NCBI GenBank assembly: GCA_035946335.1
Contig: DASYZL010000004.1
Span: 23,896-87,895 of the forward strand
Origin: Patescibacteria group bacterium
GTDB lineage: Bacteria > Patescibacteriota > Microgenomatia > Levybacterales > UBA12049
Direction: 5' to 3'
DNA: 64,000 nucleotides
Part shown: one piece after another, positions 3,743-55,655 of the stretch
Position numbering within the stretch: the first letter of the stretch is position 1
How the letters are laid out: each line of letters begins with the position of its first letter
Program-made: the position numbers and the translations under genes
The notes under the pieces: generated by a model
Seen by the model: only the letters and a program-made list of their open reading frames with translations
Told to the model about the DNA's origin: nothing
Databases searched by the model: none

Positions 3743-4423
3743 ATGAAAATTACTATTCTGACACTTTTCCCTGAAATGTTTGTTGGGCCGTTTGACATGT
3801 CCATTTTGGATCGTGCGAAGGAAAAAAACCTTTTGACAATTGAAATGGTGAATATTCGTGATTTTGGAGAAGGGAAACACAAAGTCGTAGATGATAAACC
3901 ATACGGCGGAGGGATCGGTATGGTTATGAAAGTTGCTGTCTTAGATAAAGCAATACAGTCAGTACGGGATAAAAAACTTTCACACGAAGAAAAGGTTATA
4001 TTGCTTGACCCACGTGGAGCCGTCTTTACACAAAAAGTTGCTGTTGGTTTTAGTAAGCTTACGCATCTCATTCTCTTGTGTGGTCACTACGAGGGGGTCG
4101 ACGAGCGGATACGACAACTTGTTGATGAAACAATTTCAATCGGAGACTTTGTTGTAACTGGCGGAGAGATTCCTGCCATGCTGGTTACCGATGCAGTTTC
4201 GCGGCTTATTACCGGTGTGTTAAAAAATGAAGCAACTGCATATGAATCATTTTCAGAAAAGCTCCTTGAATATCCCCAGTATACAACACCTGCTATTTAT
4301 AGATATATGAAGGTTCCTCAAGTGCTTCGAAGCGGAAACCATAATGAAATAGAAAAATGGCGAAAAGAACAGGCCGTAATAGTAACAAAAAGGCATAGGC
4401 CCGATCTTCTACAAAGTTCCTAA
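3743..4423 (+). CDS. trmD: tRNA (guanine37-N1)-methyltransferase TrmD
   Basis: MKITILTLFPEMF...PYGGGIGMVMK...LLCGHYEGVDERI SPOUT/TrmD signatures. Confidence 0.9.
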   Translation: MKITILTLFPEMFVGPFDMSILDRAKEKNLLTIEMVNIRDFGEGKHKVVDDKPYGGGIGMVMKVAVLDKAIQSVRDKKLSHEEKVILLDPRGAVFTQKVAVGFSKLTHLILLCGHYEGVDERIRQLVDETISIGDFVVTGGEIPAMLVTDAVSRLITGVLKNEATAYESFSEKLLEYPQYTTPAIYRYMKVPQVLRSGNHNEIEKWRKEQAVIVTKRHRPDLLQSS

Positions 4424-5119
4424 TGGTTTTGCCTCTTCTGTTGCAACAGGAGTGATTTGTACTTGTTTTGCTATAGCAAGCTGATTAAGAAAATCCTCAT
4501 CTGCTTTCGTAATTGTTTGTACAGGTTTTGTTTCGTCAAATGAAGTCATTGGAAACGGACTGTAGTAGAAATTTGCTGTGACTGATGTTAGCGTAGAGCT
4601 ATTAATTACAAGACCGGTAACATTGGAAAGAGGAAATTGAGTATGTAATGCTGCGATAAAACTTTTTGCTTCTTCTATCCCACCAGAGATGGTAAGTTGT
4701 ACTTGTACAGAAAGTTGTCCACTATACGTTTGTGTTCCGTTACCTTGGATGCTCCCTACCTGAAAGCTATAATCACCAAGTGTCACACCAGCAATACTTG
4801 CTGCAGAGGAAATGGCATTGAGTATGCCGGCAAAATCTTTTTGCCCTGGGAGTGCTGTTTTTGCTGTTGTCAAAAGCGAATCAAGGCGTTTATCATCAAT
4901 ATTTGATAGTATCTTCACATTTTGAGAAAGAGTATCAATTTGTTCTGAAGTTATTGAAATTTGATCTTGCAGAGTAAACCAATCTTGTATTTGGGGCATA
5001 ATAAATTGGAAAAAGATAATAAGGCAACTGATAATGACAATAAATGGAAAAATGTACTCTCTATACTTGTAGTACAATAAAAGAAAAACCGTTTGATCAA
5101 GATTGATTTTTTTGTTCAT
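4409..5119 (-). CDS. pilO: Type IV pilus assembly protein PilO-like
   Basis: N-terminal TM helix, then a coiled coil, then a C-terminal domain; immediately follows pilN; overlaps the trmD 3' end convergently by 15 nt. Confidence 0.6.
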   Translation of the reverse strand: MNKKINLDQTVFLLLYYKYREYIFPFIVIISCLIIFFQFIMPQIQDWFTLQDQISITSEQIDTLSQNVKILSNIDDKRLDSLLTTAKTALPGQKDFAGILNAISSAASIAGVTLGDYSFQVGSIQGNGTQTYSGQLSVQVQLTISGGIEEAKSFIAALHTQFPLSNVTGLVINSSTLTSVTANFYYSPFPMTSFDETKPVQTITKADEDFLNQLAIAKQVQITPVATEEAKPLGTL

Positions 5120-5652
5120 AATAATGTTGCATGCATAGAAACACTATAGCTCCCACTAACAGTTTCCACCACAACATCGTCAATGGTGACTTTTTTGAAT
5201 AGTTTTTTCTGCTGGTATACCTGGTTAACAGTATCTAAAAATGTGTGGATAGATTGCAGCGATTGGGAAGAAATCTCAAGAATGAGAGTACTTTGAGACA
5301 AAGAAAAAGTCGTAATTGTTGTATCTGTTGGCAACAATGATTGAATTGTTGCAACATCATTCGTGAGAGACGATTGGTTCTTGTGTAATTGTTCAATCTT
5401 TTTTATACGATCAAGCAGGAGAGCATTTTTTTCCTGTTTGCTTTTTAATAAAGATAAATTTGCTTCCAAGGAGTTTTTTTGATTCCGTAAATTAGGTAAT
5501 GCAGAATTTTTATTGAGAAGAAAAATGCTCACATATGCGGTTATAACCAAAATAAGCAAACTAACAGCAATACCTCTGACAAAGCGAATTGTTTTTTCCT
5601 GCTGGAGAATGTCAAGTTTTCTCTGGGGAAGTAAATTGATTTCTTTAGTCAT
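5116..5652 (-). CDS. pilN: Type IV pilus assembly protein PilN
   Basis: Classical INLLP motif (MTKEINLLPQRK) followed by a TM segment. Confidence 0.7.
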   Translation of the reverse strand: MTKEINLLPQRKLDILQQEKTIRFVRGIAVSLLILVITAYVSIFLLNKNSALPNLRNQKNSLEANLSLLKSKQEKNALLLDRIKKIEQLHKNQSSLTNDVATIQSLLPTDTTITTFSLSQSTLILEISSQSLQSIHTFLDTVNQVYQQKKLFKKVTIDDVVVETVSGSYSVSMHATLL

Positions 5653-5655
5653 AGC

Positions 5656-6678
5656 TTATCGCATGGCAAGACCTACCGCAACGGCATATTCTGAAGCATT
5701 ATCAATAATGTTTTTCGGTACTTCCTGTTTTCCGAGAATTTTCCATGGATTTGTCACTACCGTTTCAATCCCTAGTGCATTCGCAAGGTACACTGTCAAA
5801 CCAGGTAGTTTGGCAGAACCTCCCGCGAGAAGAACTTGTCTCACAGGATCATCAGGAAATTTCTCTGTATAAAATGCGATTGCCTTACGCACCTCAGTCA
5901 GAATAAGACTAAGGACGGGTTGCGCTGCTTGAGCAATTTTTCCGCCCAGTGTTTTCTCTGAAAGACCATATGCCTGCTTATATTGTTCCGCTTGTTGCAA
6001 CGAAAATCCAAAATCTGCTGCAATAGCTCTTGTTAACGCAACGCCACCAGTTGGAATCGAGTAAGCAAAAACAATAACACCGTTTCTTACAATCGCAAGT
6101 GACGTACTTACCGCACCGATGGTAATGAGTAAACTTGACGGAGCTCGAGGACCAAGTATGGTTGAGCGTATTACCGAAAGGATTTCAGTTTCGATAGAAG
6201 AAATTACCAATCCTGATAACGATAAGATTTTTACATATTTATCAATCAACACTGTTGGTGCTCCAACAAGAAGTACGTCCATTTTTCCTGCTGTATCGGT
6301 TTTTTCAGATCGTCGAAGAATTTTATAGTCAATAGTTACTGTATTTAATGGAACTGGGATATATTGTTCTGCCTCCCAGTAAATTGCAGAAACCAATTCT
6401 TTGTCTGACAGGTTTGGCATTTCGATAACTCGCGTGTAGACTTGATTTTCCGGTAATGCAACGGCAACATATTTTGTTGTTATTCCTGCTTGTACCATAA
6501 CAGAGCGGATTGCCTGAGCGAGTTCTTCCTGATCAAGCGGTGATTCAGAACGCATGCCTTTTTCAGGAGCAGGAACAATACCCACACCGCTTAAAAAATA
6601 CGTGTTTGTTTCAACCGAGAGCCAAACTGCTTTTATACTCGCAGACCCAATATCAAGACCGAATACTTTTTGTTTCAT
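5656..6678 (-). CDS. pilM: Type IV pilus assembly protein PilM (actin-like ATPase fold)
   Basis: MKQKVFGLDIGSASIKAV... actin-like fold with a C-terminal GGSAKLPGL motif. Confidence 0.85.
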   Translation of the reverse strand: MKQKVFGLDIGSASIKAVWLSVETNTYFLSGVGIVPAPEKGMRSESPLDQEELAQAIRSVMVQAGITTKYVAVALPENQVYTRVIEMPNLSDKELVSAIYWEAEQYIPVPLNTVTIDYKILRRSEKTDTAGKMDVLLVGAPTVLIDKYVKILSLSGLVISSIETEILSVIRSTILGPRAPSSLLITIGAVSTSLAIVRNGVIVFAYSIPTGGVALTRAIAADFGFSLQQAEQYKQAYGLSEKTLGGKIAQAAQPVLSLILTEVRKAIAFYTEKFPDDPVRQVLLAGGSAKLPGLTVYLANALGIETVVTNPWKILGKQEVPKNIIDNASEYAVAVGLAMR

Positions 6679-7496
6679 TATTGTATGTTAAAAAAAGAAT
6701 AGTAATATTCTGAAGGAATTGAATTATATAGCTGAAAATAGGTAATTTCCCGCTGTGTTGAGCCGGCACTACCAAGAGAAGTATATACTTTTCCCTGGGA
6801 TGGGAGCGCTTTTGCGCTACCACTTCCATCGTCTCCAGCAAATCCTAAGGGAGTCCCCGCATAAAGAGGAATAATATGTACAAGGAGACCGCCATTGATT
6901 ATTATCGACGTACCAAAAGAGAATGTTTTATTGGAAAATGTTGTTCCGCCACCAGCAATGGAGGAAAAATTATTTACATTCGCACGCGCCAGACATGGAT
7001 CAACAGCATATTTCGCAACTGTTGGACTGAGACGTGTTCCAGAAAGAACGATGACCTCCAGAGCAGCATCGCTACAACCATTCTTTGTTCCCCAATAAAC
7101 ATATAATTTCCCCGACCAAGGGTTTTGATATGCTTGTGCAATATTTGTATTATAGGTGGAAAGCCATAAGTCAACACCATCATCTTTGGGAACCGGATTA
7201 CCGTTATTAAGAATAATCTGCGAGCCGTTGATATCGTTAATAGTAACTGATTGAATTTTTGCGTTATTTCCTAAATCTTGCGCGATAAGGATAGGTGTCG
7301 GATTATTCAGTGTTTTTTCGATACCTGCCTCAGCTGCGGAAAATGCTTTTTGCGAATCACTTTCATCTGTTGTTGTTTTTAGGTCAGTGATACTTCGAGA
7401 AACCAGTGACAAACCCACAGTTAACGCAATAACCATTACCAAAATAACAATAAGAAGCATCTGGCCTTTTTCATCTTTTCTGATATGGATTTTCAT
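6678..7496 (-). CDS. PilX-like pilus-associated protein (PilX N-terminal domain)
   Basis: N-terminal TM helix, then KAFSAAEAGIEKTL, the conserved PilX_N AFxAAEAG motif. Confidence 0.6.
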   Translation of the reverse strand: MKIHIRKDEKGQMLLIVILVMVIALTVGLSLVSRSITDLKTTTDESDSQKAFSAAEAGIEKTLNNPTPILIAQDLGNNAKIQSVTINDINGSQIILNNGNPVPKDDGVDLWLSTYNTNIAQAYQNPWSGKLYVYWGTKNGCSDAALEVIVLSGTRLSPTVAKYAVDPCLARANVNNFSSIAGGGTTFSNKTFSFGTSIIINGGLLVHIIPLYAGTPLGFAGDDGSGSAKALPSQGKVYTSLGSAGSTQREITYFQLYNSIPSEYYYSFFNIQ

Positions 7497-7541
7497 TACA
7501 GTTTTAGCGTACCAACGGGACCCTTCTGTGTCAATATAACT

Positions 7542-8069
7542 TTACAAATTTGTATTACGGAGATTTACTGAAGTTTGAAATGGTATAGCGCTTGCAGATG
7601 CTATGAATTCAGTAAATGTACTCACGTTAGTTTGTTTTAGAGAAAAACTGATAGTGATAATTGGCGGGCTCTTCACGGTCGTTTGTCCACAGGAAAAAGA
7701 GCAATCTGTTACGGTAATGTTTTTTGCATCAAGCAATTGTGCCCCATTGGAAGCAATATTACCATTACCACAACTGTATGTAATCTGATCGCCGGTAACT
7801 GTATTAATAGTTACATTGCTGCTGATAACTGGCACTTCAATTGTTCCACACGGTGAGGGTGTAATAACAGCATGAGCCTCTCGAATACTTCTCGCAAGTT
7901 GGGAAATAACAAAATTACCGTTTTGCCTTACGGTGCTGATAGAGTTTACTTTAGTATCCCCACGAAGTGCAGTAAAGACAATTGTAACAATAAATGTGCT
8001 GATAACAATAAAAACAATGAGAACGGCCAAAAGTTCAATTAATGTATATCCTTTCTGGTTTTGTTTCAT
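7542..8069 (-). CDS. Minor (pseudo)pilin with class III signal peptide
   Basis: MKQNQKG|YTLIELLAVLIVF prepilin cleavage motif; the ORF track's N-terminal extension overlaps the upstream gene, so the start is set at Met 8069. Confidence 0.7.
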   Translation of the reverse strand: MKQNQKGYTLIELLAVLIVFIVISTFIVTIVFTALRGDTKVNSISTVRQNGNFVISQLARSIREAHAVITPSPCGTIEVPVISSNVTINTVTGDQITYSCGNGNIASNGAQLLDAKNITVTDCSFSCGQTTVKSPPIITISFSLKQTNVSTFTEFIASASAIPFQTSVNLRNTNL

Positions 8070-8070
8070 A

Positions 8071-8565
8071 CTATGACGATGATAAACATGTCGCAAGAGA
8101 AGTACTATGGCAGAATGTATTACTTGCAGTTGTGCACTTGCTGTCAAACCATGAAACTGAGACGGTTACCTTCGTGTCCACATTGTTACAATAGGAAGAT
8201 CTCTGCTCGAAAGAAACCTGTCGAACAAATATGTCGGTGTTTTGTCCGCAACCGGTTGGAGGAGCAACCCAACAATACGTTCCATTTGGATTTGGGCTGC
8301 TCTGTGATGCATTGACACTTGTACATGTTTTTCCGATGCAATATGAACCTGACAAAGCATTGAAGGACGAAAAATTCGTTTCATGCATATTACGAATCAT
8401 TTCCATAGCCTGTTGAGCATATTGGGTTGCAAGATTTTGATTCTTGCTATATTCTTCATTACTGAGTGATGTTATTGTCGCTAAAGTGATAGCTCCAACA
8501 ACAATAACTCCTGCTGTCAATCCAACCAACATTTCAATAAGTGTTTGTCCTTTTTGCTTATTCAT
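8071..8565 (-). CDS. Minor (pseudo)pilin with class III signal peptide
   Basis: MNKQKG|QTLIEMLVGL (unusual Gln at +1, Glu at +5); Cys-rich C-terminal domain. Confidence 0.7.
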   Translation of the reverse strand: MNKQKGQTLIEMLVGLTAGVIVVGAITLATITSLSNEEYSKNQNLATQYAQQAMEMIRNMHETNFSSFNALSGSYCIGKTCTSVNASQSSPNPNGTYCWVAPPTGCGQNTDIFVRQVSFEQRSSYCNNVDTKVTVSVSWFDSKCTTASNTFCHSTSLATCLSSS

Positions 8566-9083
8566 TGGATAACTCCTGTAGTCGTCACGGTAATAGTAGC
8601 ATTCTGCTGAGAGCTTCCAACGGCCTTTCCTTGTAAAACAATAGATGCATTTGACGTAAGGCCGCTTACAATACCAGAAATTGGAGTAAAAACAAATGAA
8701 CGGTTTGTCGTGTTTATATTATCAATAATAACATCTGAGGGAAATGACTTACTCATGACGACGTGCGTGCTGCCTCCGCAAGAGATATCCAATTCGATGT
8801 TATCACTGGATTTGCATATTGGGCAATTAGATCCTCCACCCTTACAACAAACAAAAACTTCATAGGACTGCAACGGACCACCGCAAAGACCAGCTGGTTT
8901 TACTTGTGCAAGTACATCTGCACGTGCCGTTTGTAGATATGTTTGCAGATTGTATGTGCTTTCCCGTAAATCCTGTGATCTGCTATATGAAAGAAAAGAA
9001 GCAATACCAATTGAAGAAAGTATCGCAGTAACAGAAAAAACAATGAGTAATTCAATAAGGGTGAAACCTGCTGTCTGCTTCAT
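8562..9083 (-). CDS. Minor pseudopilin (GspH/FimT-like)
   Basis: MKQTAG|FTLIELLIVFSV prepilin motif; start placed at Met 9083, overlapping the upstream pilin stop by 4 nt. Confidence 0.7.
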   Translation of the reverse strand: MKQTAGFTLIELLIVFSVTAILSSIGIASFLSYSRSQDLRESTYNLQTYLQTARADVLAQVKPAGLCGGPLQSYEVFVCCKGGGSNCPICKSSDNIELDISCGGSTHVVMSKSFPSDVIIDNINTTNRSFVFTPISGIVSGLTSNASIVLQGKAVGSSQQNATITVTTTGVIQ

Positions 9084-9562
9084 GGATTTGTCAACGTAAT
9101 TGAGTATGTATTTGTGGTACTTGGACACACGCTAGTATTGTTTGTCCCTCCACTATTCTTGTCAGCTTGATTATCGTTACTATTTTCCAGGCATCCGATA
9201 ATCGTATAAGTTGTTCCGTCACTTGCATACGCATATGATGCGTTGGTAAGCGGATCGCAGGGAATCTTTTGCATATACGTTGGCGGTGTTACCCCTGTAC
9301 CTTGCAATTGACTACCACATGCTGGAAAACTTGCCGTTACGGGATAGCTCCCATTATCAGAACGGTACAATTCAAGGGAGGCCTGAATTTGCCGCATATC
9401 AGATTTTCTCTGTGCATCTCTTGCTCGCTGTCGAATGCCAACAAGATTTGTCAGAAGTAACGCCGCAAGGATACCAATAATTGCAATAACAATCAACAAT
9501 TCTATTAATGTGAAACCTGAATTCATTGTCTGGTGTTGGGTAATACGTTTTTGTTTTTTCAT
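9080..9562 (-). CDS. Type IV pilin (PilA/PulG-like)
   Basis: ...SG|FTLIELLIVIAIIGILAALLL canonical N-methylation and TM motif; ATG confirmed at 9562, alternative start MNSG at 9526; Cys-containing variable C-terminus. Confidence 0.8.
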   Translation of the reverse strand: MKKQKRITQHQTMNSGFTLIELLIVIAIIGILAALLLTNLVGIRQRARDAQRKSDMRQIQASLELYRSDNGSYPVTASFPACGSQLQGTGVTPPTYMQKIPCDPLTNASYAYASDGTTYTIIGCLENSNDNQADKNSGGTNNTSVCPSTTNTYSITLTNP

Positions 9563-9585
9563 ATATCTATATAATAAAGTATATA

Positions 9586-10104
9586 CTACGGCGAAGTATT
9601 TGTACTCGATACGCCATAGTTGCAAACATTACTTCCTCCACATGTCACATTAGCGGGAACATTGCCGCATACGCTTCCATTATTGCACGATTGTGAGTCT
9701 ATTGTACCCCGCTCCAGAGAAGCATAAAGCCAGTACGTTTGATACGAAGAGTCAGTAACGTAAATATATGTCCTGCCTGAATCAGGATCTTTCGGTAAAA
9801 AATTCATATACGGTTGCCATGGATTTCCCCATGCAATACCAGGACGCGGATTTGCATTAATATTATTGAAGTCGACAATTTCATAAAGCGGGGATGCGGT
9901 TGAATATCGTGGATACTGTCCATGATCCTGATAATACTGTTCTAAGGCTCGCTGAATTTGCGCCAGATCTGACTTTCTCCTCGAATCATTAGCTTTCTGG
10001 AATTGTTCTAGAGGATTAACAACCATTAGAAGAACTATGGAAAGGATTCCAATAATACCAATGGCGATGAGCATTTCTACAAGCGTAAATCCTTTTTGCT
10101 TCAT
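9586..10104 (-). CDS. Type IV pilin paralogue
   Basis: MKQKG|FTLVEMLIAIGIIGILSIVLL with a classic short leader; Cys-rich C-terminus (CNNGSVCGN...CGGSNVC). Confidence 0.85.
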   Translation of the reverse strand: MKQKGFTLVEMLIAIGIIGILSIVLLMVVNPLEQFQKANDSRRKSDLAQIQRALEQYYQDHGQYPRYSTASPLYEIVDFNNINANPRPGIAWGNPWQPYMNFLPKDPDSGRTYIYVTDSSYQTYWLYASLERGTIDSQSCNNGSVCGNVPANVTCGGSNVCNYGVSSTNTSP

Positions 10105-10113
10105 ATACAGTTA

Positions 10114-10665
10114 CTATGTGCCTGGTGGAATAGTATGTGCATTGACATATACACAATCAAGATTCCCTGAAATTATACAGTAATTAATCTGTGTCGTGCT
10201 GTAATTAACAGGCATGCATGAAGGACGAGTCGCAAGCGGACAAGGATTGTTATGGGCAAGATTGCTTGTTAAATTTGCGAAGAGAATGTTCCATTGTGGA
10301 CAGTTGCTTGTTGTATCTACTTCATAACGATAGCAGTTTTTTTGTGATGCATTACAGGCTCCGTCCTGAGGAACTTTTGCCATATATATTGCCCCTCCAG
10401 CCTTCCATTGCTGCCCAAATACCAAAGATGTCGGATAACATCCGGTATCATTCAGGTATGTGTCGAGGGCTGCTTGAATTGATTTCAGATCGTGTTCACG
10501 TTGCGCATCCTGACCTTTTTGAATCTGTTCGAGTGGATTGAGAAAGATGAAAAGGAAAGTAACCAAGGTACTAAAAATGAGTATGGTAATAAGGAGCTCA
10601 ACGAGCGTAAATCCTTTCTCCTTTTCTTTTACCAGCCAAAAATTAACCTTGTAAAAAGTTGCCAT
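10114..10665 (-). CDS. Type IV pilin paralogue
   Basis: ...KEKEKG|FTLVELLITILIF; ATG at 10665 overlaps the pilD 3' end by about 37 nt; the ORF-track start at 10680 is a TTG. Confidence 0.75.
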   Translation of the reverse strand: MATFYKVNFWLVKEKEKGFTLVELLITILIFSTLVTFLFIFLNPLEQIQKGQDAQREHDLKSIQAALDTYLNDTGCYPTSLVFGQQWKAGGAIYMAKVPQDGACNASQKNCYRYEVDTTSNCPQWNILFANLTSNLAHNNPCPLATRPSCMPVNYSTTQINYCIISGNLDCVYVNAHTIPPGT

Positions 10666-11393
10666 ATGCTTTGTCCCCAAAAAAATACAACAACCATTCC
10701 GAAAGCAAGAAATGGACCAAACGGAATAGTATCATTATGGAATCTTTTTCTTCTTACCACTACTAGTATGAGTGCGAGAATGGAACCTGTCAAGAAAGCG
10801 ACATACAATGTCAAGATAATCAGAGGAATGCCAAAAAGAAGTCCCAAAAATGCGGCAAACTTTACGTCTCCAAATCCCATTCCTTTTTTCTTCGTTATCA
10901 AATAAAGAAAAGCAAAAAGTCCGCCTGCAAAAAAGAAGCCGATAATATGAGACAGGAACTGTTCTTTTTCAAAGAGGAAAAAGAGAATAGTTATACATGA
11001 AGAAATGAGTAATATGCTATCAGGAATAATGCCAAACCATAAATCGGTATAAAAAATAATGATACTAACACTTATTACATAAAACGCAAAGGCTATTTCC
11101 ACAGGCGACTGTTGTCTGGAAAACTGGAATGTGAGAATAAAAAGAATTGCTGTTGTTAATTCAACTATTGGATACTGCCAGCCGATTTTTTTTGAGCAAT
11201 ACCGACACCTCCCCTTGAGTAAAAAAAATGAGAGAAGGGGAATAAGATCATACCATCGCAACTGGTGAAGACAGAAATCGCAATGCGATCTACCTTTTAA
11301 AAACGATTCGCCGCGGGGTATTCTATCAATAAGTACGTTGAGAAAAGAACCGATACATAACCCTATAAAACAAGGCAACAATGCAATAATCAT
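10629..11393 (-). CDS. pilD: Prepilin peptidase / N-methyltransferase PilD (A24 family)
   Basis: GSFLNVLIDRIP, CxxC...CRYC zinc motif, and GMGFGDVKF catalytic Asp box. Confidence 0.9.
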   Translation of the reverse strand: MIIALLPCFIGLCIGSFLNVLIDRIPRGESFLKGRSHCDFCLHQLRWYDLIPLLSFFLLKGRCRYCSKKIGWQYPIVELTTAILFILTFQFSRQQSPVEIAFAFYVISVSIIIFYTDLWFGIIPDSILLISSCITILFFLFEKEQFLSHIIGFFFAGGLFAFLYLITKKKGMGFGDVKFAAFLGLLFGIPLIILTLYVAFLTGSILALILVVVRRKRFHNDTIPFGPFLAFGMVVVFFWGQSIWQLFTRLIFGW

Positions 11394-13414
11394 GCCGCTT
11401 TCATCGTAGCAGAAAACGCCTTTTGATACGATTCATGAAATATCTGCTGAAACTGTTGCTCAAGCAGCAAAACCTTAGACTTATTATGTTCACAATCAGC
11501 ATAGACTTTATGTAAAAGAAAATAGGAAAGCCTGTCCAGCGGATCCAGAGCAAGTGTTGTTTGAAATTCTATATCTGCAGCTTTACAATTTTTTTCCCCA
11601 GTTAAGTAATAAATAGCAAGCATTTGGTGCGTCTGCGGGAAGTCAGGATTTATTACGAGTGCCTTTTCATACCATTGTTTTGCTTTTCCTATATCTTTAT
11701 ATTGCGTCAGATAGTAATTTCCCGCTACCAACATTCCTAATACGTAGGTATTGGGAATATCAGCAATGCTGAGACTTTGCAGAGATTTGACAGTTTGCTG
11801 TTGAGCAAATGATGGAATGTGCAGTGACTGCCATACCCAATTTTCTTTATCGGTAAATGCTAACTCATCTGGTGGCAATTCGTGAGGGAGAAGCAGACGA
11901 AATGTTAATCCAAACGGAATCCATTGTAAATCTTTTTTCTTTTCTGGTTGCACACCTGAAATAGCAAAAACAGGATGTGTCTTTTGAATCTCCCGTATGA
12001 TCACTTCCTCGTTGAGTATTGACGGAGAGAAGGGATGTGTTTTTTTATACTGTTGTTCCTCGCTAAGAAAAAATGCATCTCGCCCTAAACTATCAAGATT
12101 AACAATTTGCACATCAGGACGTATCCGCAGAGCAAAGTGCACATACTGGGTATTAAACAATGTTGTGTCTCCTCCAACAAAAAATACGGAGTTTTTTGGA
12201 AGAGATTGGATAAAGTCTTCCCCTAAATAGTCACCAGTCATAATATGCGATAGGTCAGTTTTAGGGAAGTTATAGAAAAGAAGAGCAACAGGAATGATGA
12301 AAAAAACAGATGGTATGACGATACGCCATACGTTTCTGTGCAAAAAAATTGCAAACGCATTTATAACAGTAATAAGTCCAAAGGGAAAGAAGTATAAAAG
12401 CATAATACTTGATAAGACAAAAAATCGTTCGTAGGTACCAATATAAAACGCACCATATAAAGGAAATCCAGCATAACTGATAAAAACAGGACCACTTAAG
12501 AAAAATGCGAGAAGGATAGCAATGCAAAGGATTTTCTGTTTACGAAACAAGGAAATAACACCAATTGCGCTTATGACAATGACTGGGATGGTAAGCTGGA
12601 CAAGTAGCGTAAACAAATACGTTTGCATAATGACAAAGCGTTGCAATACTGTTGGCGGAGCAAAAAAACCTCCGGAAAATGTTCCATAGTCCTTCCGCAA
12701 AATAATATAGAGGAATGATTGCCAATCCGTCACCTTATCCCATAAAATTGGCGGGTTATGTCTTGATACAGCCAGTGCATACGCATATGGTAGGAAACCA
12801 CAAATGAAAGTAAATCCAAGAAAGGGAAGTAAACGGAATAGTGTTTTCTTTTTTTCCCAGTATCCTGCAAGGATGATAAGAAAAAGTGAAGGAAAAATAA
12901 AAACAATTGTCTGATGATGAGAGGCAGCAAGTCCGAGAATGAATGTAAAAAAAAATAAGAGATATGTTTTTGATTTTTGATAGAATGAGATAGCGAGATA
13001 GAGAAGAAAAATTGCAAAAAAAGAGTTTAAAGCAAAAACTTCTGCAATCTCATTGTAAAACCAGAATAAGAATGAGAACGAGAGGATACTTCCAGTAATA
13101 AGGCTGACAAGTATATTTTTTGTGAGTTTTCTTATAGTAAGAAAGAAAAAGAGAACGCTCAGCGCTCCTGATGCTGCCGAAATAAGCCCAACTGTAAATG
13201 CAGGGGACGGAAAAAAAGGAAAACGCGTTAAAAGAAATCCAAGAAAGGTGAACAGGGGATACCCTGGCGCGTGAGGTAAACCTCCGACATACGCTGCAGT
13301 TACCAGATCGCCAACATCACCCCCATAAACTCCTCTTGAGAGATTGTGAACATACAAAAGAAAAGACAAGAAGAGAACGCTAACAGAAAGCAGGAAAAAA
13401 TTCCTCTGCGTCAT
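11390..13414 (-). CDS. DUF2723/TMEM260-like GT-C fold membrane glycosyltransferase with C-terminal TPR repeats
   Basis: YGGDVGDLVTAAYVGGLPHAPGYPLFTFLG is the DUF2723 signature; more than 10 TM helices; TPR-like C-terminus (WYEKALVINPDFPQTHQMLAIYY). Embedded between a pilin gene and pilD. Confidence 0.75.
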   Translation of the reverse strand: MTQRNFFLLSVSVLFLSFLLYVHNLSRGVYGGDVGDLVTAAYVGGLPHAPGYPLFTFLGFLLTRFPFFPSPAFTVGLISAASGALSVLFFFLTIRKLTKNILVSLITGSILSFSFLFWFYNEIAEVFALNSFFAIFLLYLAISFYQKSKTYLLFFFTFILGLAASHHQTIVFIFPSLFLIILAGYWEKKKTLFRLLPFLGFTFICGFLPYAYALAVSRHNPPILWDKVTDWQSFLYIILRKDYGTFSGGFFAPPTVLQRFVIMQTYLFTLLVQLTIPVIVISAIGVISLFRKQKILCIAILLAFFLSGPVFISYAGFPLYGAFYIGTYERFFVLSSIMLLYFFPFGLITVINAFAIFLHRNVWRIVIPSVFFIIPVALLFYNFPKTDLSHIMTGDYLGEDFIQSLPKNSVFFVGGDTTLFNTQYVHFALRIRPDVQIVNLDSLGRDAFFLSEEQQYKKTHPFSPSILNEEVIIREIQKTHPVFAISGVQPEKKKDLQWIPFGLTFRLLLPHELPPDELAFTDKENWVWQSLHIPSFAQQQTVKSLQSLSIADIPNTYVLGMLVAGNYYLTQYKDIGKAKQWYEKALVINPDFPQTHQMLAIYYLTGEKNCKAADIEFQTTLALDPLDRLSYFLLHKVYADCEHNKSKVLLLEQQFQQIFHESYQKAFSATMKAA

Positions 13415-13951
13415 TTACTCTGAGCACCAGTAGCAGGTTGTACCACCAGGATTTGTTGCAGGACAATTTGCAGCTGCACCAGTCAATGTCCCGTCTTTAT
13501 TATATTTTGCATTTGGATCATTTTGTCCTGACTTTGATTGAGGAAGGAAACATGCTGTAAGCGAGTTTGTGGTACCACTGACATAAATGCTGGTTAACAA
13601 CCCTGTTGCCGTCGTGAAACCAGCCTTAATTTCTCCATCATTTAATAAATCAGTCAAACAGGTAATCATTTGAGCAGAATTTAAATTAGCCGTTACTGGC
13701 GCAGTAAGTCCCGCTCCACCACAAGCAGTATCAACGCTCCACATCATTGCATTATGTGTGGTATAGTAACGGGTTCCAGCATTAACAAACTCAACGGCAG
13801 TATTTTTAACATTTGCATCTTGCGCTTTTTTCAATTGTTGAAACGGATCAATCGTTGCTATTAATGCGGTTGCCAAAATACCCAGAATACCAATAACGAC
13901 AAGTAGCTCAATAAGCGTAAACCCTTTTTCTTTTTTCACATCACAATGCAT
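13415..13951 (-). CDS. Type IV pilin paralogue
   Basis: MHCDVKKEKG|FTLIELLVVIGILGILATALIA; ATG confirmed at 13951 (longer in-frame alternatives exist up to 14044); Cys pairs in the C-terminal domain. Confidence 0.8.
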   Translation of the reverse strand: MHCDVKKEKGFTLIELLVVIGILGILATALIATIDPFQQLKKAQDANVKNTAVEFVNAGTRYYTTHNAMMWSVDTACGGAGLTAPVTANLNSAQMITCLTDLLNDGEIKAGFTTATGLLTSIYVSGTTNSLTACFLPQSKSGQNDPNAKYNKDGTLTGAAANCPATNPGGTTCYWCSE

Positions 13952-14046
13952 CTTTTTTAATAATAAAAACCGGAAGTTTTTTATTCCTTTCATTACATTA
14001 TTAGGATGGCATAGGTGACAAAAATTTGTCAAGTAGCAAAACAAAA

Positions 14047-14460
14047 TTATTGCGGGTTAACAAAGAGAATGCCAACTGGTTTTCCGGAGAAACGAATGAT
14101 AAAGGACCCAATATGATTCGCAGTAAAGGAAAATGAGCCCTCTTTATTTTTTTCAAGAGAAAAAACAGGAGAATATTTATCAATGGTTAATTGTCCGGAT
14201 GTATCCGAGACAACACGGAGAAGTACCGCGTTATTTTGCTTCACCTGAAAATTAGCTGCATCAAAAAAGTTCATATCCTGCCGGATGTTCAGTTTAAAAG
14301 TTTGCTCATTACCTGCACTGAGTACTGTTTGCTGCGACAAATGAGGCGGACCGCCTGAAGTAGTACTGTGTTGATCTTGTAGTGTGCGCTCGATGATAAG
14401 CGCTGCAATAACAAGAAAAAGTAACAGGGCAACAATAATAAGTTTTTGCATCCCTTTCAT
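14047..14460 (-). CDS. Small membrane-anchored protein of unknown function within the pilus operon
   Basis: One N-terminal TM helix (LIIVALLLFLVIAALII) followed by a Ser/Thr- and beta-rich soluble domain; no recognisable family. Confidence 0.5.
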   Translation of the reverse strand: MKGMQKLIIVALLLFLVIAALIIERTLQDQHSTTSGGPPHLSQQTVLSAGNEQTFKLNIRQDMNFFDAANFQVKQNNAVLLRVVSDTSGQLTIDKYSPVFSLEKNKEGSFSFTANHIGSFIIRFSGKPVGILFVNPQ

Positions 14461-14479
14461 AGCTCGCTGATAGTATAAT

Positions 14480-15685
14480 CTATTGAATTGATGAAGTTAA
14501 ATTGTAAATTGGTGTGATAATAGAAATGATAAGGAAAGCAACTGCAATACCAAGTATTATCATAATAAACGGTTCCATCGCTGTTGTGAGAGTTTTAACT
14601 GTCCCTTCTACCTCCCGTTCAAAATATTCAGAAACTTTTAGAAGCGATTCATCAAGATTACCAGTCTGTTCACCTATTTTCACCATTTGAACAATCATAG
14701 GAGGAAAAATAGGGTAGGCGCTGATCGCATCTCCAATTGTCACTCCTTTCTCAACGCGCTTTGCAATATCGATAATTGCAGTTTTGTAAATTCTGTTGCC
14801 AGCAACTTCTGCAGACTCGTTGAGTGATTCAACAACAAGTGTCCCCGCTCCGATAAGTAGTCCGAAAGTTCTGGAAAATTCAGTAAGGATTCTTTTCTTA
14901 ATAAGATTACCAAATACCGGAATTTTTAAAATGAGGCTATCGTGGATAAGTTCACCAGAGTCTGTTTTTTTCCATCTTTTGTATAATACAAAAAGGACAA
15001 CACCCAACCCAATTAAAAAAGGCCAAAAGATTATGACGATATTCGATAGACCAACAACAATTTGAGTTGGTAAAGGCAGTGGAATATTCAAATTACTATA
15101 TAAAACAGTGAGTTGCGGAATAACAAATATCATCATTACTCCCATTACCACAACCATTAGGATCACAATAATGACTGGGTAGGTGAGTGCACCACGAATC
15201 GTAGAACGAAGTTTTTGTTCTTTTTCCAAATTATCTGCAAGTCGTAAGAGTACTTTGTCCAGAAAACCTGATGACTCCGCAGCTTTAATAAGGGAAATAT
15301 ATACGTGGGAAAAAAGTTGCGGATATTTCTGAATTGCAGTTGAGAGCGCTTTCCCTTCTTGTACATCGGAAATAATACTGCTGACTACTTCTTTCATGCC
15401 CTCATTTTGTATCTGGTCTTTTAAAATGTCTAATGCCTGCGTCAACGTTAAGCCTGCTGTTAGCATGGAAGAAAGTTGACGCGTAAACAATACAAGGTCA
15501 TTTGTTGTCAGACGATTAAAATATGAAACAAACGGAATTGTTTCTTTTGCTTTTTCTTGTTCAAGACGGATAGGAAGTAACTCTTTTGCCCGTAAAAAAT
15601 ACGCTGCCTCCTGAATATCTTTTGCATCCATAACACCCTGTACAATTCTTCCTGTTGGAGTAGTGGCTTTGTATGTCAGTTTCAT
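14480..15685 (-). CDS. pilC: Type IV pilus platform protein PilC (GspF family)
   Basis: Two GspF repeats and three TM segments (LTAGLTL...QALDIL..., FSRTFGLLIGAG). Confidence 0.9.
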   Translation of the reverse strand: MKLTYKATTPTGRIVQGVMDAKDIQEAAYFLRAKELLPIRLEQEKAKETIPFVSYFNRLTTNDLVLFTRQLSSMLTAGLTLTQALDILKDQIQNEGMKEVVSSIISDVQEGKALSTAIQKYPQLFSHVYISLIKAAESSGFLDKVLLRLADNLEKEQKLRSTIRGALTYPVIIVILMVVVMGVMMIFVIPQLTVLYSNLNIPLPLPTQIVVGLSNIVIIFWPFLIGLGVVLFVLYKRWKKTDSGELIHDSLILKIPVFGNLIKKRILTEFSRTFGLLIGAGTLVVESLNESAEVAGNRIYKTAIIDIAKRVEKGVTIGDAISAYPIFPPMIVQMVKIGEQTGNLDESLLKVSEYFEREVEGTVKTLTTAMEPFIMIILGIAVAFLIISIITPIYNLTSSIQ

Positions 15686-15689
15686 TTCC

Positions 15690-16772
15690 TTATCCTACCA
15701 GTTGCAGTAATTCATTTGGGTGCAGCGAATAATTCTTTGCAATATCAAGGCTGATGATTCCAGAAAGGATCAGTTGTGCAAGTGAACTATCCAATGTCTC
15801 CATGCCAACATCCTGACTCGTTTGAATAATAGAATCAATTAGGTGGGTTTTTCCATCTCTTATGTTACTTGCAACCGCAGGTGTTCCTATCATCACCTCA
15901 ACTGCCGGAATCCGTCCGCCAGATAACATCGGCAAGAGACGTTGTGATATTATACCCTGCAATACAAATGCAAGCTGGGTCCGTACTTGTGATTGCTGAC
16001 TCGTTGGAAATGAATCGATGATTCTGTCTACCGACTGTGCGGCTGAATTCGTGTGCAAGGTCGAAAATACTAAATGCCCGGTTTCTGCGATTGTCATCGC
16101 TGCGCTCATTGTATCCGGATCGCGCATTTCTCCAACTAAAACAACATCAGGATCTTCCCGTAAGGCAGATTTTAACGCAGCAGCCCATGAAAGTGTATCT
16201 GTTTTTAGTTCTCTCTGGGAAATCATACTTTTGCCAACCGGATAAACGTATTCTATCGGATCTTCAACTGTAAGGATGTGAGCCGCACGGGTCATATTAA
16301 TTTCATTGATAATTGCTGCTAATGTTGTTGATTTTCCGTGCCCTGTGGGACCTGTAATTAAAACCAGCCCTTGACGGAGTTTGGTAAAACTATGGCAAAT
16401 GGTAGGAATGTGCAATTCTTCGATAGTGCGGATACCTCTTTGAAGGAACCTGAGTGCCGCACAGAGTTGATTACGTTGAAAATAGGCATTTACGCGAAAT
16501 CTGCCAATGTCACCATAAATTCCCTTACCATAGGGAATAGAGAAGTCGAGTTCTTTTCCTGAAATTAGTAGATTTTTTTGCTCCGGTGTCAGAAGAGAGA
16601 AAAGCATACTTTGAACGGCCTCAGGGGAAAGTATGGAATAAGAAGATAAATAAGTAAGCTCACCGTCTATGCGAAGAACTGGCGGAATACCTGGCATCAG
16701 ATGTAAATCAGATGCGTTATTTTTAACAGTAAGCGCTAATAATTCTTGTAAATCCATGCTATTCTTGTGCAA
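15690..16772 (-). CDS. pilT: Twitching-motility retraction ATPase PilT
   Basis: ASDLHLMPGIPPVLRIDGEL, Walker A GPTGHGKSTT, Asp box and His box (TGHLVFSTLHTN). Confidence 0.9.
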   Translation of the reverse strand: MHKNSMDLQELLALTVKNNASDLHLMPGIPPVLRIDGELTYLSSYSILSPEAVQSMLFSLLTPEQKNLLISGKELDFSIPYGKGIYGDIGRFRVNAYFQRNQLCAALRFLQRGIRTIEELHIPTICHSFTKLRQGLVLITGPTGHGKSTTLAAIINEINMTRAAHILTVEDPIEYVYPVGKSMISQRELKTDTLSWAAALKSALREDPDVVLVGEMRDPDTMSAAMTIAETGHLVFSTLHTNSAAQSVDRIIDSFPTSQQSQVRTQLAFVLQGIISQRLLPMLSGGRIPAVEVMIGTPAVASNIRDGKTHLIDSIIQTSQDVGMETLDSSLAQLILSGIISLDIAKNYSLHPNELLQLVG

Positions 16773-18561
16773 CGCGTAATACTTCTTCGATTGTAGTCAC
16801 ACCCTGTAATACCTTCATATACCCATCCTGCTTCATAGTTATCATGCCCTCTACTACCGCCTCTTTTTCAACAGTTTCGCTATCAGGGTGTTCCAGAATA
16901 AGCCGTGACACCTTCTCTGAAACAGGTAATACTTCAAAGATACCAATTCGTCCTATATAACCGGAATCCCCACATGCTTCGCATCCTTTTCCTTTATACA
17001 ATTGTATGTTTGCCTGTGAGGTCGGAAAAAGTTGTCCAAGAACTGTTTTCAGCTCCTGGACAACCTGTGCTGGAGGCGTATATGCCTCTTTACAATGCAG
17101 GCAAATTCTGCGAACAATTCTTTGCCCTAAAATCGCTGTCATTGTTGAGGCAAGCAAAAAATTCTCCGCTCCCAAATCCAACAATCTCGGGAGGGCTCCA
17201 GCGGCAGAAGAAGTATGTAATGTCGAAAAGACCAAATGTCCGGTGAGCGATGCCTGAATAGCAAGATCTGTTGTCTCGCGATCACGAATTTCTCCGACAA
17301 GAATAATGTTTGGGTCCTGTCGTAAAAACGCACGCAATCCTGATGCAAAGGTGAGTCCAACTGCCGGATTTATCTGTACCTGGTTTACACCGACAATTTC
17401 ATATTCAACCGGATCTTCAAGTGAAAGAATATTGACACTTGGTGTATTGAGCCGGGATAGAACAGAGTAGAGTGTTGTTGTTTTTCCTGAACCTGTCGGC
17501 CCACAAACAACAATAATGCCATGCGGCCGCAACATTGCTGTTTCAAGATTTTTTAATGCAGTTCCGCCCAAACCCAATTCCTGAAACGTGGGAATGCCGC
17601 CGGATTTTCGCAAAAGCCGCATGACTATCTTTTCTCCATGAACAGTAGGTAATACAGAAATACGTAAATCCACCTCCTGATCGTCTGCTTTAAAGTTAAA
17701 TCGTCCATCCTGAGGAGTTCTATGCTCATCAATTTTCATTTCGGACAAAACTTTGATTCGCGAAATAACTGCTCCCTGTACAGTTTTCGGTAAACTTAAT
17801 CTATCATATAAAATACCATCAATACGGTAGCGAACACGTACCCGGTCCTCCAGCGGTTCAATGTGCACATCAGACGCACGACTAGTTACTGCATACTCAA
17901 GAATCGTTGCGACGATTTTAGCAATTGGCGCTTCTTTTATAATTTCACCGATTTTTTTACTGTCAATGGTTTTCGTCTTGTTTTCAACTTCTTCTGTTTC
18001 TTTTACCGCCCTGCCGACTTCACCGACAAGTTCCTGCCGGTATTGCGTGTTAATTGCATGTTCAACATCTGTGGATGAAGCTGCAAATGCTTTTATCGTA
18101 AGGCCTGTTTTTTGCCTGACAAATTGTAGCGCATCCAGGTCAACGGGATTACTCATGGCAATAAAGAGCGTTTTTGTTTTATCGTCGTACAAAAAGGGGA
18201 CGAGATGAAATCTGTCTACAACGGCTCGTGGTATAAAACTTAAAGCCTGTGGTGAAAACGAGGTATTTGCAAGTGAGACAAACGGAATACCGAGTATTTT
18301 TGCTTTCACTTGTGCGAGCTGCTCTTCTGTCACGATTCCGGATTGCGATAGGAGAAGATCAATAGGTATTCCATTTGTTGCACTTTTCGCCCGTATATCG
18401 TCATACTGTGCTTTAGTAATATATTTCTCGTTCAGTAGTTCTGTGAGCAACGAATCCTGGCTGTTCGAAAAAGAAGACAGAACACCGTTTGGCGCTACCG
18501 GAACAAGCTGTTTTGTCATATTTGGTACAGAAAACGTATTCCCTGATAATTGTGTGGGCAT
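16759..18561 (-). CDS. pilB: Type IV pilus assembly ATPase PilB (GspE family)
   Basis: N-terminal GspE-N domains, Walker A GPTGSGKTTT, tetracysteine CLHCK...CEACG, GRIGIFEVL. Confidence 0.9.
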   Translation of the reverse strand: MPTQLSGNTFSVPNMTKQLVPVAPNGVLSSFSNSQDSLLTELLNEKYITKAQYDDIRAKSATNGIPIDLLLSQSGIVTEEQLAQVKAKILGIPFVSLANTSFSPQALSFIPRAVVDRFHLVPFLYDDKTKTLFIAMSNPVDLDALQFVRQKTGLTIKAFAASSTDVEHAINTQYRQELVGEVGRAVKETEEVENKTKTIDSKKIGEIIKEAPIAKIVATILEYAVTSRASDVHIEPLEDRVRVRYRIDGILYDRLSLPKTVQGAVISRIKVLSEMKIDEHRTPQDGRFNFKADDQEVDLRISVLPTVHGEKIVMRLLRKSGGIPTFQELGLGGTALKNLETAMLRPHGIIVVCGPTGSGKTTTLYSVLSRLNTPSVNILSLEDPVEYEIVGVNQVQINPAVGLTFASGLRAFLRQDPNIILVGEIRDRETTDLAIQASLTGHLVFSTLHTSSAAGALPRLLDLGAENFLLASTMTAILGQRIVRRICLHCKEAYTPPAQVVQELKTVLGQLFPTSQANIQLYKGKGCEACGDSGYIGRIGIFEVLPVSEKVSRLILEHPDSETVEKEAVVEGMITMKQDGYMKVLQGVTTIEEVLRVAQE

Positions 18562-18591
18562 TACTGTAATAGTAGGTAACTTGGCTGTATA

Positions 18592-19248
18592 ATGTCAAGG
18601 AAGATGCAAAGTTTTATTCTGCTTTCCTTCAGGAAAAAAAGTGTTGAGGATTATCTGGATATCTTCCATAACAAACATACGATTGACCGTTTTGACAGAA
18701 CTACTGTTGCTTCTGAGGGAAGTATAGGCATTGAAATTATCCGGAATCTTCAACAAGTCATTTTCCTTTCTCCCTTAAAGGGAAAAGAAAAAAGTATCAT
18801 AATAACACATGCGGAGCGCTTAACCCATGAGGCACAAAATGCCTTGTTGAAGATACTGGAAGAACCACCAGCACATGTTTTCCTTTTTCTTCTCACCACC
18901 CGGTTGGATGGACTATTACCAACTGTTATCTCCCGGTGTCAACTGGTTCGTTTTTCTGAAGAACCGGTATTACTGCTTCAAGAAGAAAAAGAGCATTTGC
19001 AAAAAGATATACTAACCTGTCTTCACGGTACAATTGGCGAAAAGCTCATGCTTGCAGAGAAAATAGCAACAGATGAGATGTTTGCCTGGACACAAAAAAT
19101 ACTACCTGTCGCACGGGAACAGTTTCTTGATGAAGCCAACCAAGAATTGTTACGACTTCTCACGCAGCTACAGTATATGCACCAACTTTTGCAAACAACA
19201 ACAGTCAATAAACGGTTCCTTGCGGAACATATGCTTCTATCATTATGA
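18592..19248 (+). CDS. holB: DNA polymerase III delta'-subunit-like clamp-loader protein; N-terminus lacks a Walker A
   Basis: AQNALLKILEEPP and TVISRCQ sensor motifs are typical of delta'/tau; there is no GxxGxGK P-loop. Confidence 0.5.
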   Translation: MSRKMQSFILLSFRKKSVEDYLDIFHNKHTIDRFDRTTVASEGSIGIEIIRNLQQVIFLSPLKGKEKSIIITHAERLTHEAQNALLKILEEPPAHVFLFLLTTRLDGLLPTVISRCQLVRFSEEPVLLLQEEKEHLQKDILTCLHGTIGEKLMLAEKIATDEMFAWTQKILPVAREQFLDEANQELLRLLTQLQYMHQLLQTTTVNKRFLAEHMLLSL

Positions 19249-31120: not shown

Positions 31121-31156
31121 ACCCTCGCTTGCAGTGAGGGTTTTTTTCTTTTTTTA
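31121..31156 (+). terminator. Rho-independent terminator after the argG-like gene
   Basis: ACCCTC-gcttgcagt-GAGGGT hairpin followed by a 16-nt T-rich run ending 2 nt before the next ATG. Confidence 0.6.
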
Positions 31157-31157
31157 T

Positions 31158-38420: not shown

Positions 38421-38537
38421 AATTATATTGTGCGACGTGATATCGCTTTTGTCAAGGACTCAGCAGCATTGCATTTATCTTGTCGTCGTGGTATTTTGTA
38501 TGCTCTTAACTGCTCTTTGAAAGCAGTCATTATTTTT

Positions 38538-53670: not shown

Positions 53671-53671
53671 A

Positions 53672-55234: not shown

Positions 55235-55342
55235 GTCGTTACAAAATATCAAATTAACATCAAGAATACAAGCAGTTTCCTTGAAAGGACTACGATTAAT
55301 AGTATATACTACAAACGCGATAATTAACCTGAAAATTTTCAT

Positions 55343-55427
55343 GCCGAAGTGGTGGAATGGCAGACACGAAGGTCTCAAAAACCTTTGGATGTAATAGTCC
55401 GTGAGGGTTCGACTCCCTCTTTCGGCA
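55343..55427 (+). tRNA. tRNA-Leu (anticodon CAA)
   Basis: Acceptor stem GCCGAAG/TTTCGGC (one G-U pair), anticodon stem AAGGT/ACCTT with loop CTCAAAA, long variable arm, T-arm GAGGG-TTCGACT-CCCTC, discriminator A; CCA not encoded. Confidence 0.85.
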
Positions 55428-55655
55428 CAAAGAGTTTGAGTTGCTCCAAGTTCCTCATTTTAATAAAAACCTGAACTGAAAGAAGTAAAATGTTTTAAAA
55501 AAGACAACAAACGAAAGGACTAAAAATAAAATATGAAATAGTCACGATAAGGAATATTAAGGTTTTATTTATATGAAGAACCTTTTAGATAATATACCTT
55601 CCTAATCCTCGCCTTTCGGTTTGGATTAGGAAACTAAGTAATTTCTCGAAAATCT

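Follow-up and report, generated by a model that had tools for sequence, protein, structure and literature searches.

A type IV pilus (T4P) encoded at a single locus without a secretin is a recognised hallmark of the Candidate Phyla Radiation (CPR) and of monoderm bacteria. In the Microgenomates bacterium Ch65, all T4P components (PilB, PilT, PilC, PilD, PilM and pilins) are "encoded at a single locus" that has no pilQ (PMC7143001). Locus one of the Saccharibacteria (TM7x) comprises PilB, PilT, PilC, PilMNO, PilD and five pilins, with T4P function shown genetically (PMC11623550). The roles proposed for T4P in CPR bacteria are attachment, twitching and DNA uptake (PMC7143001; PMC11623550). In another lineage, the 22-kb pil locus of Streptococcus sanguinis encodes a whole retractile monoderm type IVa pilus (T4aP) without a secretin (PMC4832360). 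The present analysis concerns a 17-gene pilus locus (g1 to g17) of a Patescibacteria group bacterium, located in a stretch of 64,000 nucleotides of contig DASYZL010000004.1 (assembly GCA_035946335.1, positions 23,896 to 87,895 of the forward strand), which is referred to at its full length as the window. The cluster itself is of an already known type and is ordinary; the new element, and a modest but testable lead, is a module of a pilin (g5), a predicted GT-C glycosyltransferase (g6) and the prepilin peptidase PilD (g7).

Like the loci of Ch65 and other CPR bacteria, the cluster forms one locus and has no pilQ (PMC7143001; PMC11623550). Unlike the Ch65 and Saccharibacteria descriptions, which mention no glycosyltransferase within the locus, it carries a DUF2723 GT-C gene between the first pilin gene and pilD; PilN and PilO are also identified in it. 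With S. sanguinis it shares a single cluster of pilins, PilD, an extension ATPase, PilT, a platform protein and PilM/PilN, known here from genes alone. The accessory genes PilI/J/K set the S. sanguinis locus apart, whereas the present one has the GT-C, an ORFan, seven prepilins and a separate PilO.

The closest described counterparts of g6 come from two other systems. TfpW of Pseudomonas aeruginosa is a GT-C glycosyltransferase of 646 aa with 11 transmembrane (TM) segments, an acidic loop-1 motif and a periplasmic C-terminus made of tetratricopeptide repeats (TPR); its gene lies immediately downstream of pilA, and TfpW is required for pilin arabinosylation (bioRxiv 10.1101/2020.04.19.049825). 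TMEM260 is the metazoan DUF2723 protein O-mannosyltransferase for IPT domains, with a catalytic Asp52 in the region of the first loop (PMC10214176). The TMEM260 study is the only DUF2723 paper in the searchable literature, where no paper links DUF2723 to pilins, and where CPR papers that name both glycosyltransferases and pili draw no link between them. The O-glycosylation sites in the Saccharibacteria study were merely predicted computationally (PMC11623550).

The favoured explanation of the locus, given a probability of about 0.8, is a T4aP cluster of a CPR bacterium with an embedded GT-C that is proposed to modify its pilins. The g6 product matches PF11028 with 83.5 bits (cut-off 24.2) over residues 33-188, has weak Pfam matches to PMT_2 and TPR, and has homologues whose precomputed annotations are likewise DUF2723/TMEM260-like. 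An AlphaFold2 model built with 42 homologues reached a predicted local distance difference test (pLDDT) of 88.9 and a predicted TM-score (pTM) of 0.87. Searched with Foldseek, this model matched STT3 from the yeast and human oligosaccharyltransferases, DPY19, AftA and ALG3/ALG9 (E-values of 1e-4 to 4e-2, TM-scores of ~0.3-0.45), while its C-terminal TPR helices matched OGT-type TPRs and PilW. By family match and model, g6 is a member of the DUF2723/TMEM260 family with a predicted GT-C fold.

Hydropathy, the AlphaFold2 helices and the positive-inside rule together predict 11 TM segments, a cytoplasmic N-terminus and an external position for residues 381-674. The first external loop reads GGDVGD; among 42 sequences with 38-48% identity to g6, G35-D36 is invariant and D33 is conserved in at least 90%, and many other external-loop residues are also invariant in this set. 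A conserved enzymatic site has therefore been argued from the loop-1 Asp and the external loops. Compared by published description only, g6 resembles TfpW in size (~650 aa), in the 11 predicted TM segments, in the acidic loop-1 motif, in the external TPR C-terminus and in having a pilin gene directly upstream. It differs from the TfpW system in that no genes for D-arabinofuranose biosynthesis are seen in the window and in that its CPR host lacks an outer membrane. With TMEM260 it shares PF11028, a GT-C fold, 11 TM segments and a non-cytoplasmic C-terminal TPR domain; D36 of g6 and Asp52 of TMEM260 are likened by loop region, not by residue alignment. Unlike TMEM260, which uses dolichyl-phosphate mannose as donor and IPT domains as acceptors, g6 is a distant bacterial homologue for which the proposed donor is a polyprenyl-phosphate sugar and the proposed acceptor a pilin.

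The g6 gene begins 0 nt past g5, overlaps pilD by 4 nt, and is translationally coupled to both. The g5 protein is a candidate major pilin and a candidate substrate of the glycosyltransferase. Across almost the whole protein it shares 55-74% identity with over 100 protein clusters, a conservation that is strikingly high for a pilin; the corresponding figure for the GT and its homologues is 38-48%. Its invariant residues include four cysteines and the segment C-F-x-P-x-S-K, the C-terminus is of the CYWC type, and the AlphaFold2 model (pLDDT 83.8) has a 54-residue alpha1 helix as in T4a pilins.

The association of this pilin with the glycosyltransferase extends well beyond the present genome. An earlier reading of the same DNA, made by a model from the letters alone without database searches (hereafter the sequence-only reading), had guessed a CPR-type host, and this is borne out: the nearest relatives are Levybacteria, and identical GT and pilin proteins are filed at NCBI under "Patescibacteria group bacterium". 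When the GT alignment was used in a scan of one genome per species, the best matches were in Levyibacteriota, followed by Gottesman-, Curtiss-, Woese- and Roizmanbacteria; distant homologues (at most 30% identity) occurred in Verrucomicrobiota, Acidobacteriota, Myxococcota and others. Loci found through the GT, 40 from CPR-type species and 40 from outside the CPR, were then compared with the window proteins by tblastn. T4P core genes were present at 35 of the 40 CPR-type loci, and at 32 an orthologue of g5 lay directly upstream of the GT on the same strand; the corresponding counts for the 40 non-CPR loci were 2 and 0. The reverse test used loci chosen through pilin homologues (P0146, P0195, P0178 and P0151) on contigs outside the 120 listed GT matches, and a TMEM260-like gene stood right after the pilin at each (4/4). 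At locus L087, a pilin-GT-GT-PilD block is kept though pilBTC do not lie upstream. Pilin O-glycosylation is inferred because this pilin-GT pairing mirrors that of PilA and TfpW in Pseudomonas; the balance leans slightly towards a g6 enzyme that acts on pilins.

The surrounding gene order is shared as well. Three related loci, L002 (Levybacteria), L003 and L004, read holB, then pilB, pilT, pilC, pilin, GT, pilD, further pilins, pilX-like, pilM, pilN and pilO, then trmD. The same order recurs at ~40-75% protein identity in Levy-, Gottesman-, Curtiss- and Woesebacteria, and pilus loci between holB and trmD are found in dozens of Microgenomates species. The cluster is a core-genome T4aP locus of a Patescibacteria/CPR bacterium related to Levybacteria. 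Horizontal acquisition was considered and rejected, as the base composition of the cluster (GC 0.38-0.43) is no different from that of its flanks and its neighbours holB and trmD are conserved class-wide. Three relatives carry an additional GT-C gene in the slot between the GT and pilD (Table 1), which points to a variable islet of glycosylation genes within the pilus locus. The broader proposal stands at even odds: that Microgenomates-class CPR bacteria carry a vertically inherited module for pilin O-glycosylation in the T4P operon, in which a DUF2723 GT-C, joined in some lineages by PMT_2-, YfhO- or PIG-V-like enzymes, would decorate a conserved major pilin.

Two observations on the records themselves were made alongside this comparison. 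At L086, the DUF2723 gene after the pilin is split into two open reading frames (ORFs) at 6531-7271 (246 aa) and 7313-8632 (439 aa), which may reflect a pseudogene or a frameshift introduced in assembly. Many TPA_asm metagenome-assembled genomes titled "uncultured Gammaproteobacteria bacterium" (L010-L022, L028, L036, L041, L043 and others) carry the Microgenomates-type locus with the same holB/trmD flanks, and these labels are probably wrong.

A number of points weigh against the favoured explanation. The structural similarity of g6 to known enzymes is only moderate (TM-score ~0.4), and its loop 1 reads D-V-G-D, as opposed to the DDx of TfpW. A Pfam scan of 40 other ORFs, which cover the large genes of the window, gave no polyprenyl-phosphate-sugar synthase and no flippase. 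For the head domain of g5, no solved structure is a convincing counterpart, the best Foldseek match being a weak one to Neisseria PilE (E=0.06), and any of the four non-minor pilins may be the major subunit. The g1 ATPase scores 555 bits on the NCBIfam PilB model (cut-off 675.65) and 569 bits on GspE (cut-off 630.25), under both equivalog cut-offs; on these scores, g1 is placed as a PilB/GspE family member and not as an equivalog. Finally, synteny is only correlative, and g6 could serve another envelope substrate relevant to the passage of the pilus.

The g1-g17 locus as such almost certainly encodes a T4aP machine. The sequence-only reading had described its genes as together encoding a retractile T4P machine, which holds for 15 of the 17 products, each upheld by Pfam, NCBIfam or PDB-profile searches; left out of that tally were the GT-C glycosyltransferase (g6) and the ORFan (g4). 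PilB, PilT, PilC and PilD, as it had named them, are upheld by Pfam and NCBIfam family matches. The motifs of PilT are readable in translation: Walker A GPTGHGKST, Walker B DPDVVLVGEMRD, the His box and the AIRNLIRE-like AVASNIRDGKTH. PilD shows its CxxC...CxxC, IIPD and GFGDVK motifs. The PilMNO complex that had been claimed also stands, with PilM above family thresholds and PilN and PilO upheld by orthologue profiles only. When PilN and PilO were searched singly, nothing significant was found in Pfam or NCBIfam, the sub-threshold Pfam matches being E=0.025 for PilN and, for PilO, E=0.14 and E=0.051 (T2SSM_b). Profiles of 20 sequences each, aligned from the positional orthologues of 19 related loci, were therefore searched against PDB sequences. 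The PilN profile had its best match in Myxococcus xanthus PilN (3jc8, E=7e-5), and the PilO profile in M. xanthus PilO (3jc8, E=7e-13), with a further match to P. aeruginosa PilO (2rjz, E=0.059). Residues I5-N6-L7 of PilN are invariant among orthologues and form what we take to be the motif that binds PilM.

Seven ORFs (g5 and g8-g13) exceed the Pfam N_methyl cut-off, and signal peptides with Gly-1 and Glu+5 are readable in all seven. Weak matches to GspH and to prepilin-peptidase-dependent protein models were obtained for g11, whose L002 orthologue has a weak GspH match in Pfam. The g14 protein occupies the PilX/GspK position and has an orthologue at the same position in relatives (28-58% identity). 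Of the earlier count of four major-type pilins, three minor pilins and a PilX-like protein, the seven prepilins and the protein at the PilX position are confirmed, while the "major-type" and "minor" labels of individual pilins are tentative.

As the sequence-only reading had stated, neither PilQ nor PilP is present at the locus: Pfam finds neither among the 17 operon products. Secretin, ComEC and GT2 were likewise absent from the 40 other scanned ORFs, the search being confined to the window; these ORFs are housekeeping genes (gyrB, gyrA, pyrG, argG, recG, dnaB, hisS, efp, an xerC-like recombinase and others), with a few that have no match. The absence of PilQ and PilP is expected without an outer membrane and is thus compatible with a monoderm-type T4P. 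Membership of that type is not excluded by the missing secretin, because a cell without an outer membrane is expected to lack one.

The ORF map agrees with the earlier description of 17 tightly packed minus-strand genes with several 4-nt overlaps. With start codons refined according to where the prepilin cleavage motifs lie and how the identical contig is annotated in public records, 17 consecutive co-directional ORFs run from 18561 down to 4409. The junctions are 1, 4, 28, 53, 0 and -4 nt from g1 to g7, and -37, 9, 23, -4, -4, 1, 45, -1, 3 and -4 nt from g7 to g17 (negative values denote overlaps). Four of these are 4-nt overlaps (GT/PilD, g10/g11, g11/g12 and PilN/PilO), and the widest gap is 53 nt. 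The presence of every component in one unit had been called notable; this judgement does not hold, since the same gene order is common in Microgenomates and single loci without pilQ have already been published (PMC7143001; PMC4832360). Of the sigma-70-like matches in the region, the best is TTGACA-18-TACTAT (18598..18569), directly upstream of g1. This site sits in the 30-nt spacer between holB and pilB, and its -35 hexamer shares bases with the start codon of holB. A pilB mRNA made from it would have almost no leader, except if Met15 (18519) is the true start of PilB.

With this spacing, a single transcript for all 17 genes is compatible and plausible. The possibility that the cluster comprises more than one transcription unit, with a separate promoter for g5 and possibly for the downstream pilin block, falls somewhat short of even. 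Major pilin genes often have their own promoter. Just upstream of g5 lie the largest gap and a promoter-like TTGGCA-18-AATAAT (10/12 sigma-70-like; 14075..14046), a 45-nt gap precedes g14, and the cluster of L028 is broken by a gene on the other strand. Set against this, pattern scans counted 50 sigma-70-like promoter matches inside the unit compared with 44±7.1 in shuffled sequence, which is chance level, as is the number of terminator-like matches (17 compared with 11.8±3.7). The same scans found no terminator-like hairpin in the intergenic gaps of the unit, none of which exceeds 53 nt.

The substrate of g6 is the point on which the favoured explanation faces its strongest competitor. The DUF2723 GT-C could act on another envelope component, such as an S-layer protein, a lipoglycan, a teichoic-acid-like polymer or other secreted proteins, and merely share the operon, for example in envelope remodelling that aids the passage of the fibre. 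The non-CPR homologues in Verrucomicrobiota, Acidobacteriota, Myxococcota and others lack a T4P context and have no pilin upstream at any of the 40 loci; the family therefore has non-pilin substrates elsewhere. Furthermore, teichoic-acid glycosylation is a known activity of YfhO-type enzymes (PMC5836110), and enzymes of this type occur in the GT-pilD slot of relatives. Yet the GT remains directly downstream of the pilin in L087, where pilBTC lie elsewhere, g6 is translationally coupled to the pilin and to pilD, and its architecture matches that of the pilin-specific TfpW. Action on a non-pilin substrate is accordingly considered unlikely.

It is more doubtful still that g6 is mainly a structural assembly factor without catalysis, in which the TPR domain acts like PilF/PilW of diderm bacteria. 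Its TPR tail weakly matches the NCBIfam model type_IV_pilW (E=5.8e-5), and Foldseek matches the PilW structure 2vq2 (E=0.045). However, TPR matches are generic, PilF/PilW act on secretins, of which there are none here, and the putative catalytic loop-1 Asp and many external-loop residues are invariant across the 42 sequences. A reading of the locus as a Com-type pseudopilus for DNA uptake or as a piston like that of a type II secretion system (T2SS), and not as a retractile surface pilus, is very improbable: several pilins have their best scores with GspG and ComG models and the score of g1 is slightly higher with the GspE model than with that of PilB, but PilT is above threshold, PilM, PilN and PilO are present, no match at the locus points to a GspD secretin, to GspC/L/M or to a ComGA-ComGB-only architecture, and cultured CPR bacteria have documented T4P filaments and twitching (PMC11623550).

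In the favoured explanation of a T4aP with an embedded pilin-modifying enzyme, piliation, retraction, glycosyl transfer, its acceptor and sugar, and the single transcript are all inferred, and the parts would work together as follows. PilD would cleave and N-methylate the seven prepilins. PilB, acting on the PilC platform held by PilM-PilN-PilO, would polymerise the major pilin, with assembly primed by a four-protein minor-pilin set, g11-g14 (GspH/I/J/K-like), and PilT would depolymerise the fibre and so retract it. The fibre would cross a single-membrane envelope, where a secretin is unneeded without an outer membrane. The g6 enzyme would take a polyprenyl-phosphate-linked sugar at the outer face of the membrane, with D36, possibly together with D33, as the catalytic Asp in the first external loop, and its external TPR domain would recognise the substrate. 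The pilin would then be O-glycosylated by g6 either before it is assembled or in the course of assembly, in the way that TfpW modifies the group IV PilA of Pseudomonas.

Table 1. Genes of the pilus locus, its flanks, and additional GT-C genes in the corresponding slot of related loci
Feature	Sequence	Positions	Strand	Length (aa)	Details
g1, PilB-type extension ATPase	window	16759..18561	-	600	N-terminal MshEN/GSPII_E_N plus T2SSE; Pfam T2SSE 418.7 bits, MshEN 51.7 bits
g2, PilT retraction ATPase	window	15690..16757	-	355	from ATG at 16757; TIGR01420 pilT_fam 425.9 bits (cut-off 319.1)
g3, PilC platform protein	window	14480..15685	-	401	Pfam T2SSF, two stretches, 202 bits; NCBIfam GspF/PilC 300-346 bits
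g4, ORFan	window	14047..14451	-	134	one N-terminal TM segment; between pilC and conserved pilin
g5, conserved prepilin	window	13415..13993	-	192	leader end KG/FTLIELL; N_methyl 35.7 bits
g6, DUF2723/TMEM260-like, predicted GT-C glycosyltransferase	window	11390..13414	-	674	PF11028; 11 predicted TM; external alpha/beta + TPR C-terminal domain
g7, PilD prepilin peptidase/N-methyltransferase	window	10629..11393	-	254	A24_N_bact 118.3 bits, Peptidase_A24 49.9 bits
g8, prepilin	window	10114..10665	-	183	from ATG at 10665; KG/FTLVELL; 37-nt overlap with pilD; N_methyl 29.9 bits; GspG model 32.7 bits, sub-threshold
g9, prepilin, GspG/T2SSG-like	window	9586..10104	-	172	N_methyl 33 bits; T2SSG 24.1 bits (cut-off 21)
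g10, prepilin, GspG/T2SSG-like	window	9080..9562	-	160	N_methyl 31.5, T2SSG 28.4, GspG model 62.9 bits
g11, minor prepilin, GspH/FimU-like	window	8562..9083	-	173	AG/FTLIELL; N_methyl 27.5 bits
g12, minor prepilin, PilV/GspI-like	window	8071..8565	-	164	KG/QTLIEML; N_methyl 27.3 bits; PilV model E=0.004
g13, minor prepilin	window	7542..8069	-	175	KG/YTLIELL; N_methyl 23.3 bits; weak HpsC, ComGE, ComGF matches
g14, PilX/GspK-position protein	window	6678..7496	-	272	hydrophobic N-terminus without Glu5; PilX_N 21.2 bits (under 25.5 cut-off)
g15, PilM	window	5656..6678	-	340	PilM_2 188.2 bits; TIGR01175 230 bits (cut-off 133)
g16, PilN	window	5116..5652	-	178	N-terminal INLLP motif; orthologue profile against PDB sequences
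g17, PilO	window	4409..5119	-	236	orthologue profile against PDB sequences
holB-like gene	window	18592-19248	+		DNA_pol3_delta2; divergent flank of pilus cluster
trmD	window	3743-4423	+		convergent flank of pilus cluster
Extra GT-C, PMT_2	L002	12015-13190		391	GT-pilD slot
Extra GT-C, YfhO-like	L028	11919-14093	opposite	724	GT-pilD slot
Extra GT-C, Mannosyl_trans2-like	L087	8607-9752			GT-pilD slot

The g4 ORFan stands apart from the remainder of the cluster. It has no Pfam or NCBIfam family match even at E-values up to 1, and no homologue besides itself among 5.8 billion protein clusters. It is missing at this position in all related loci, and L002-L004 have just ~40-90 nt there. Judged from these sequence comparisons, g4 is a lineage-specific insertion. 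Identities as a PilP-like or a cupredoxin-like protein were considered, with no support for either.

Several features elsewhere in the window were also recorded. Between 31134 and 41342 there are large ORFs without a Pfam match (31134-32726, 33084-34733, 38430-40337 and 40347-41342), with a tyrosine recombinase among them (37464-38420; Phage_integrase, 147 bits) and a local shift in GC skew at 36-38 kb, and this region may be an integrated element. A 601-aa ORF without a Pfam match (19305-21110, +) lies between holB and gyrB, an interval whose content varies among relatives. The argininosuccinate synthase gene (29426-31054, +) encodes 542 aa with an extra C-terminal MGS-like domain. Two neighbouring PmbA/TldD-family metallopeptidase genes (52066-55378, -) encode 534 and 568 aa, and the upstream gene (53672-55378) overlaps at its start with a tRNA-Leu(CAA) gene at 55343-55428. 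An Rfam scan of the window gave one tRNA and nothing else.

To our knowledge, no function has so far been assigned to the bacterial relatives of TMEM260, a human disease gene. If the proposed role of g6 is true, the pilin-GT-C-PilD module would give bacterial DUF2723 proteins a first functional context and a testable substrate. The fibre with which CPR bacteria are thought to locate their hosts and hold on to them would then be sugar-coated, and the pilus glycan would matter for host specificity, for resistance to phages and for immune recognition.

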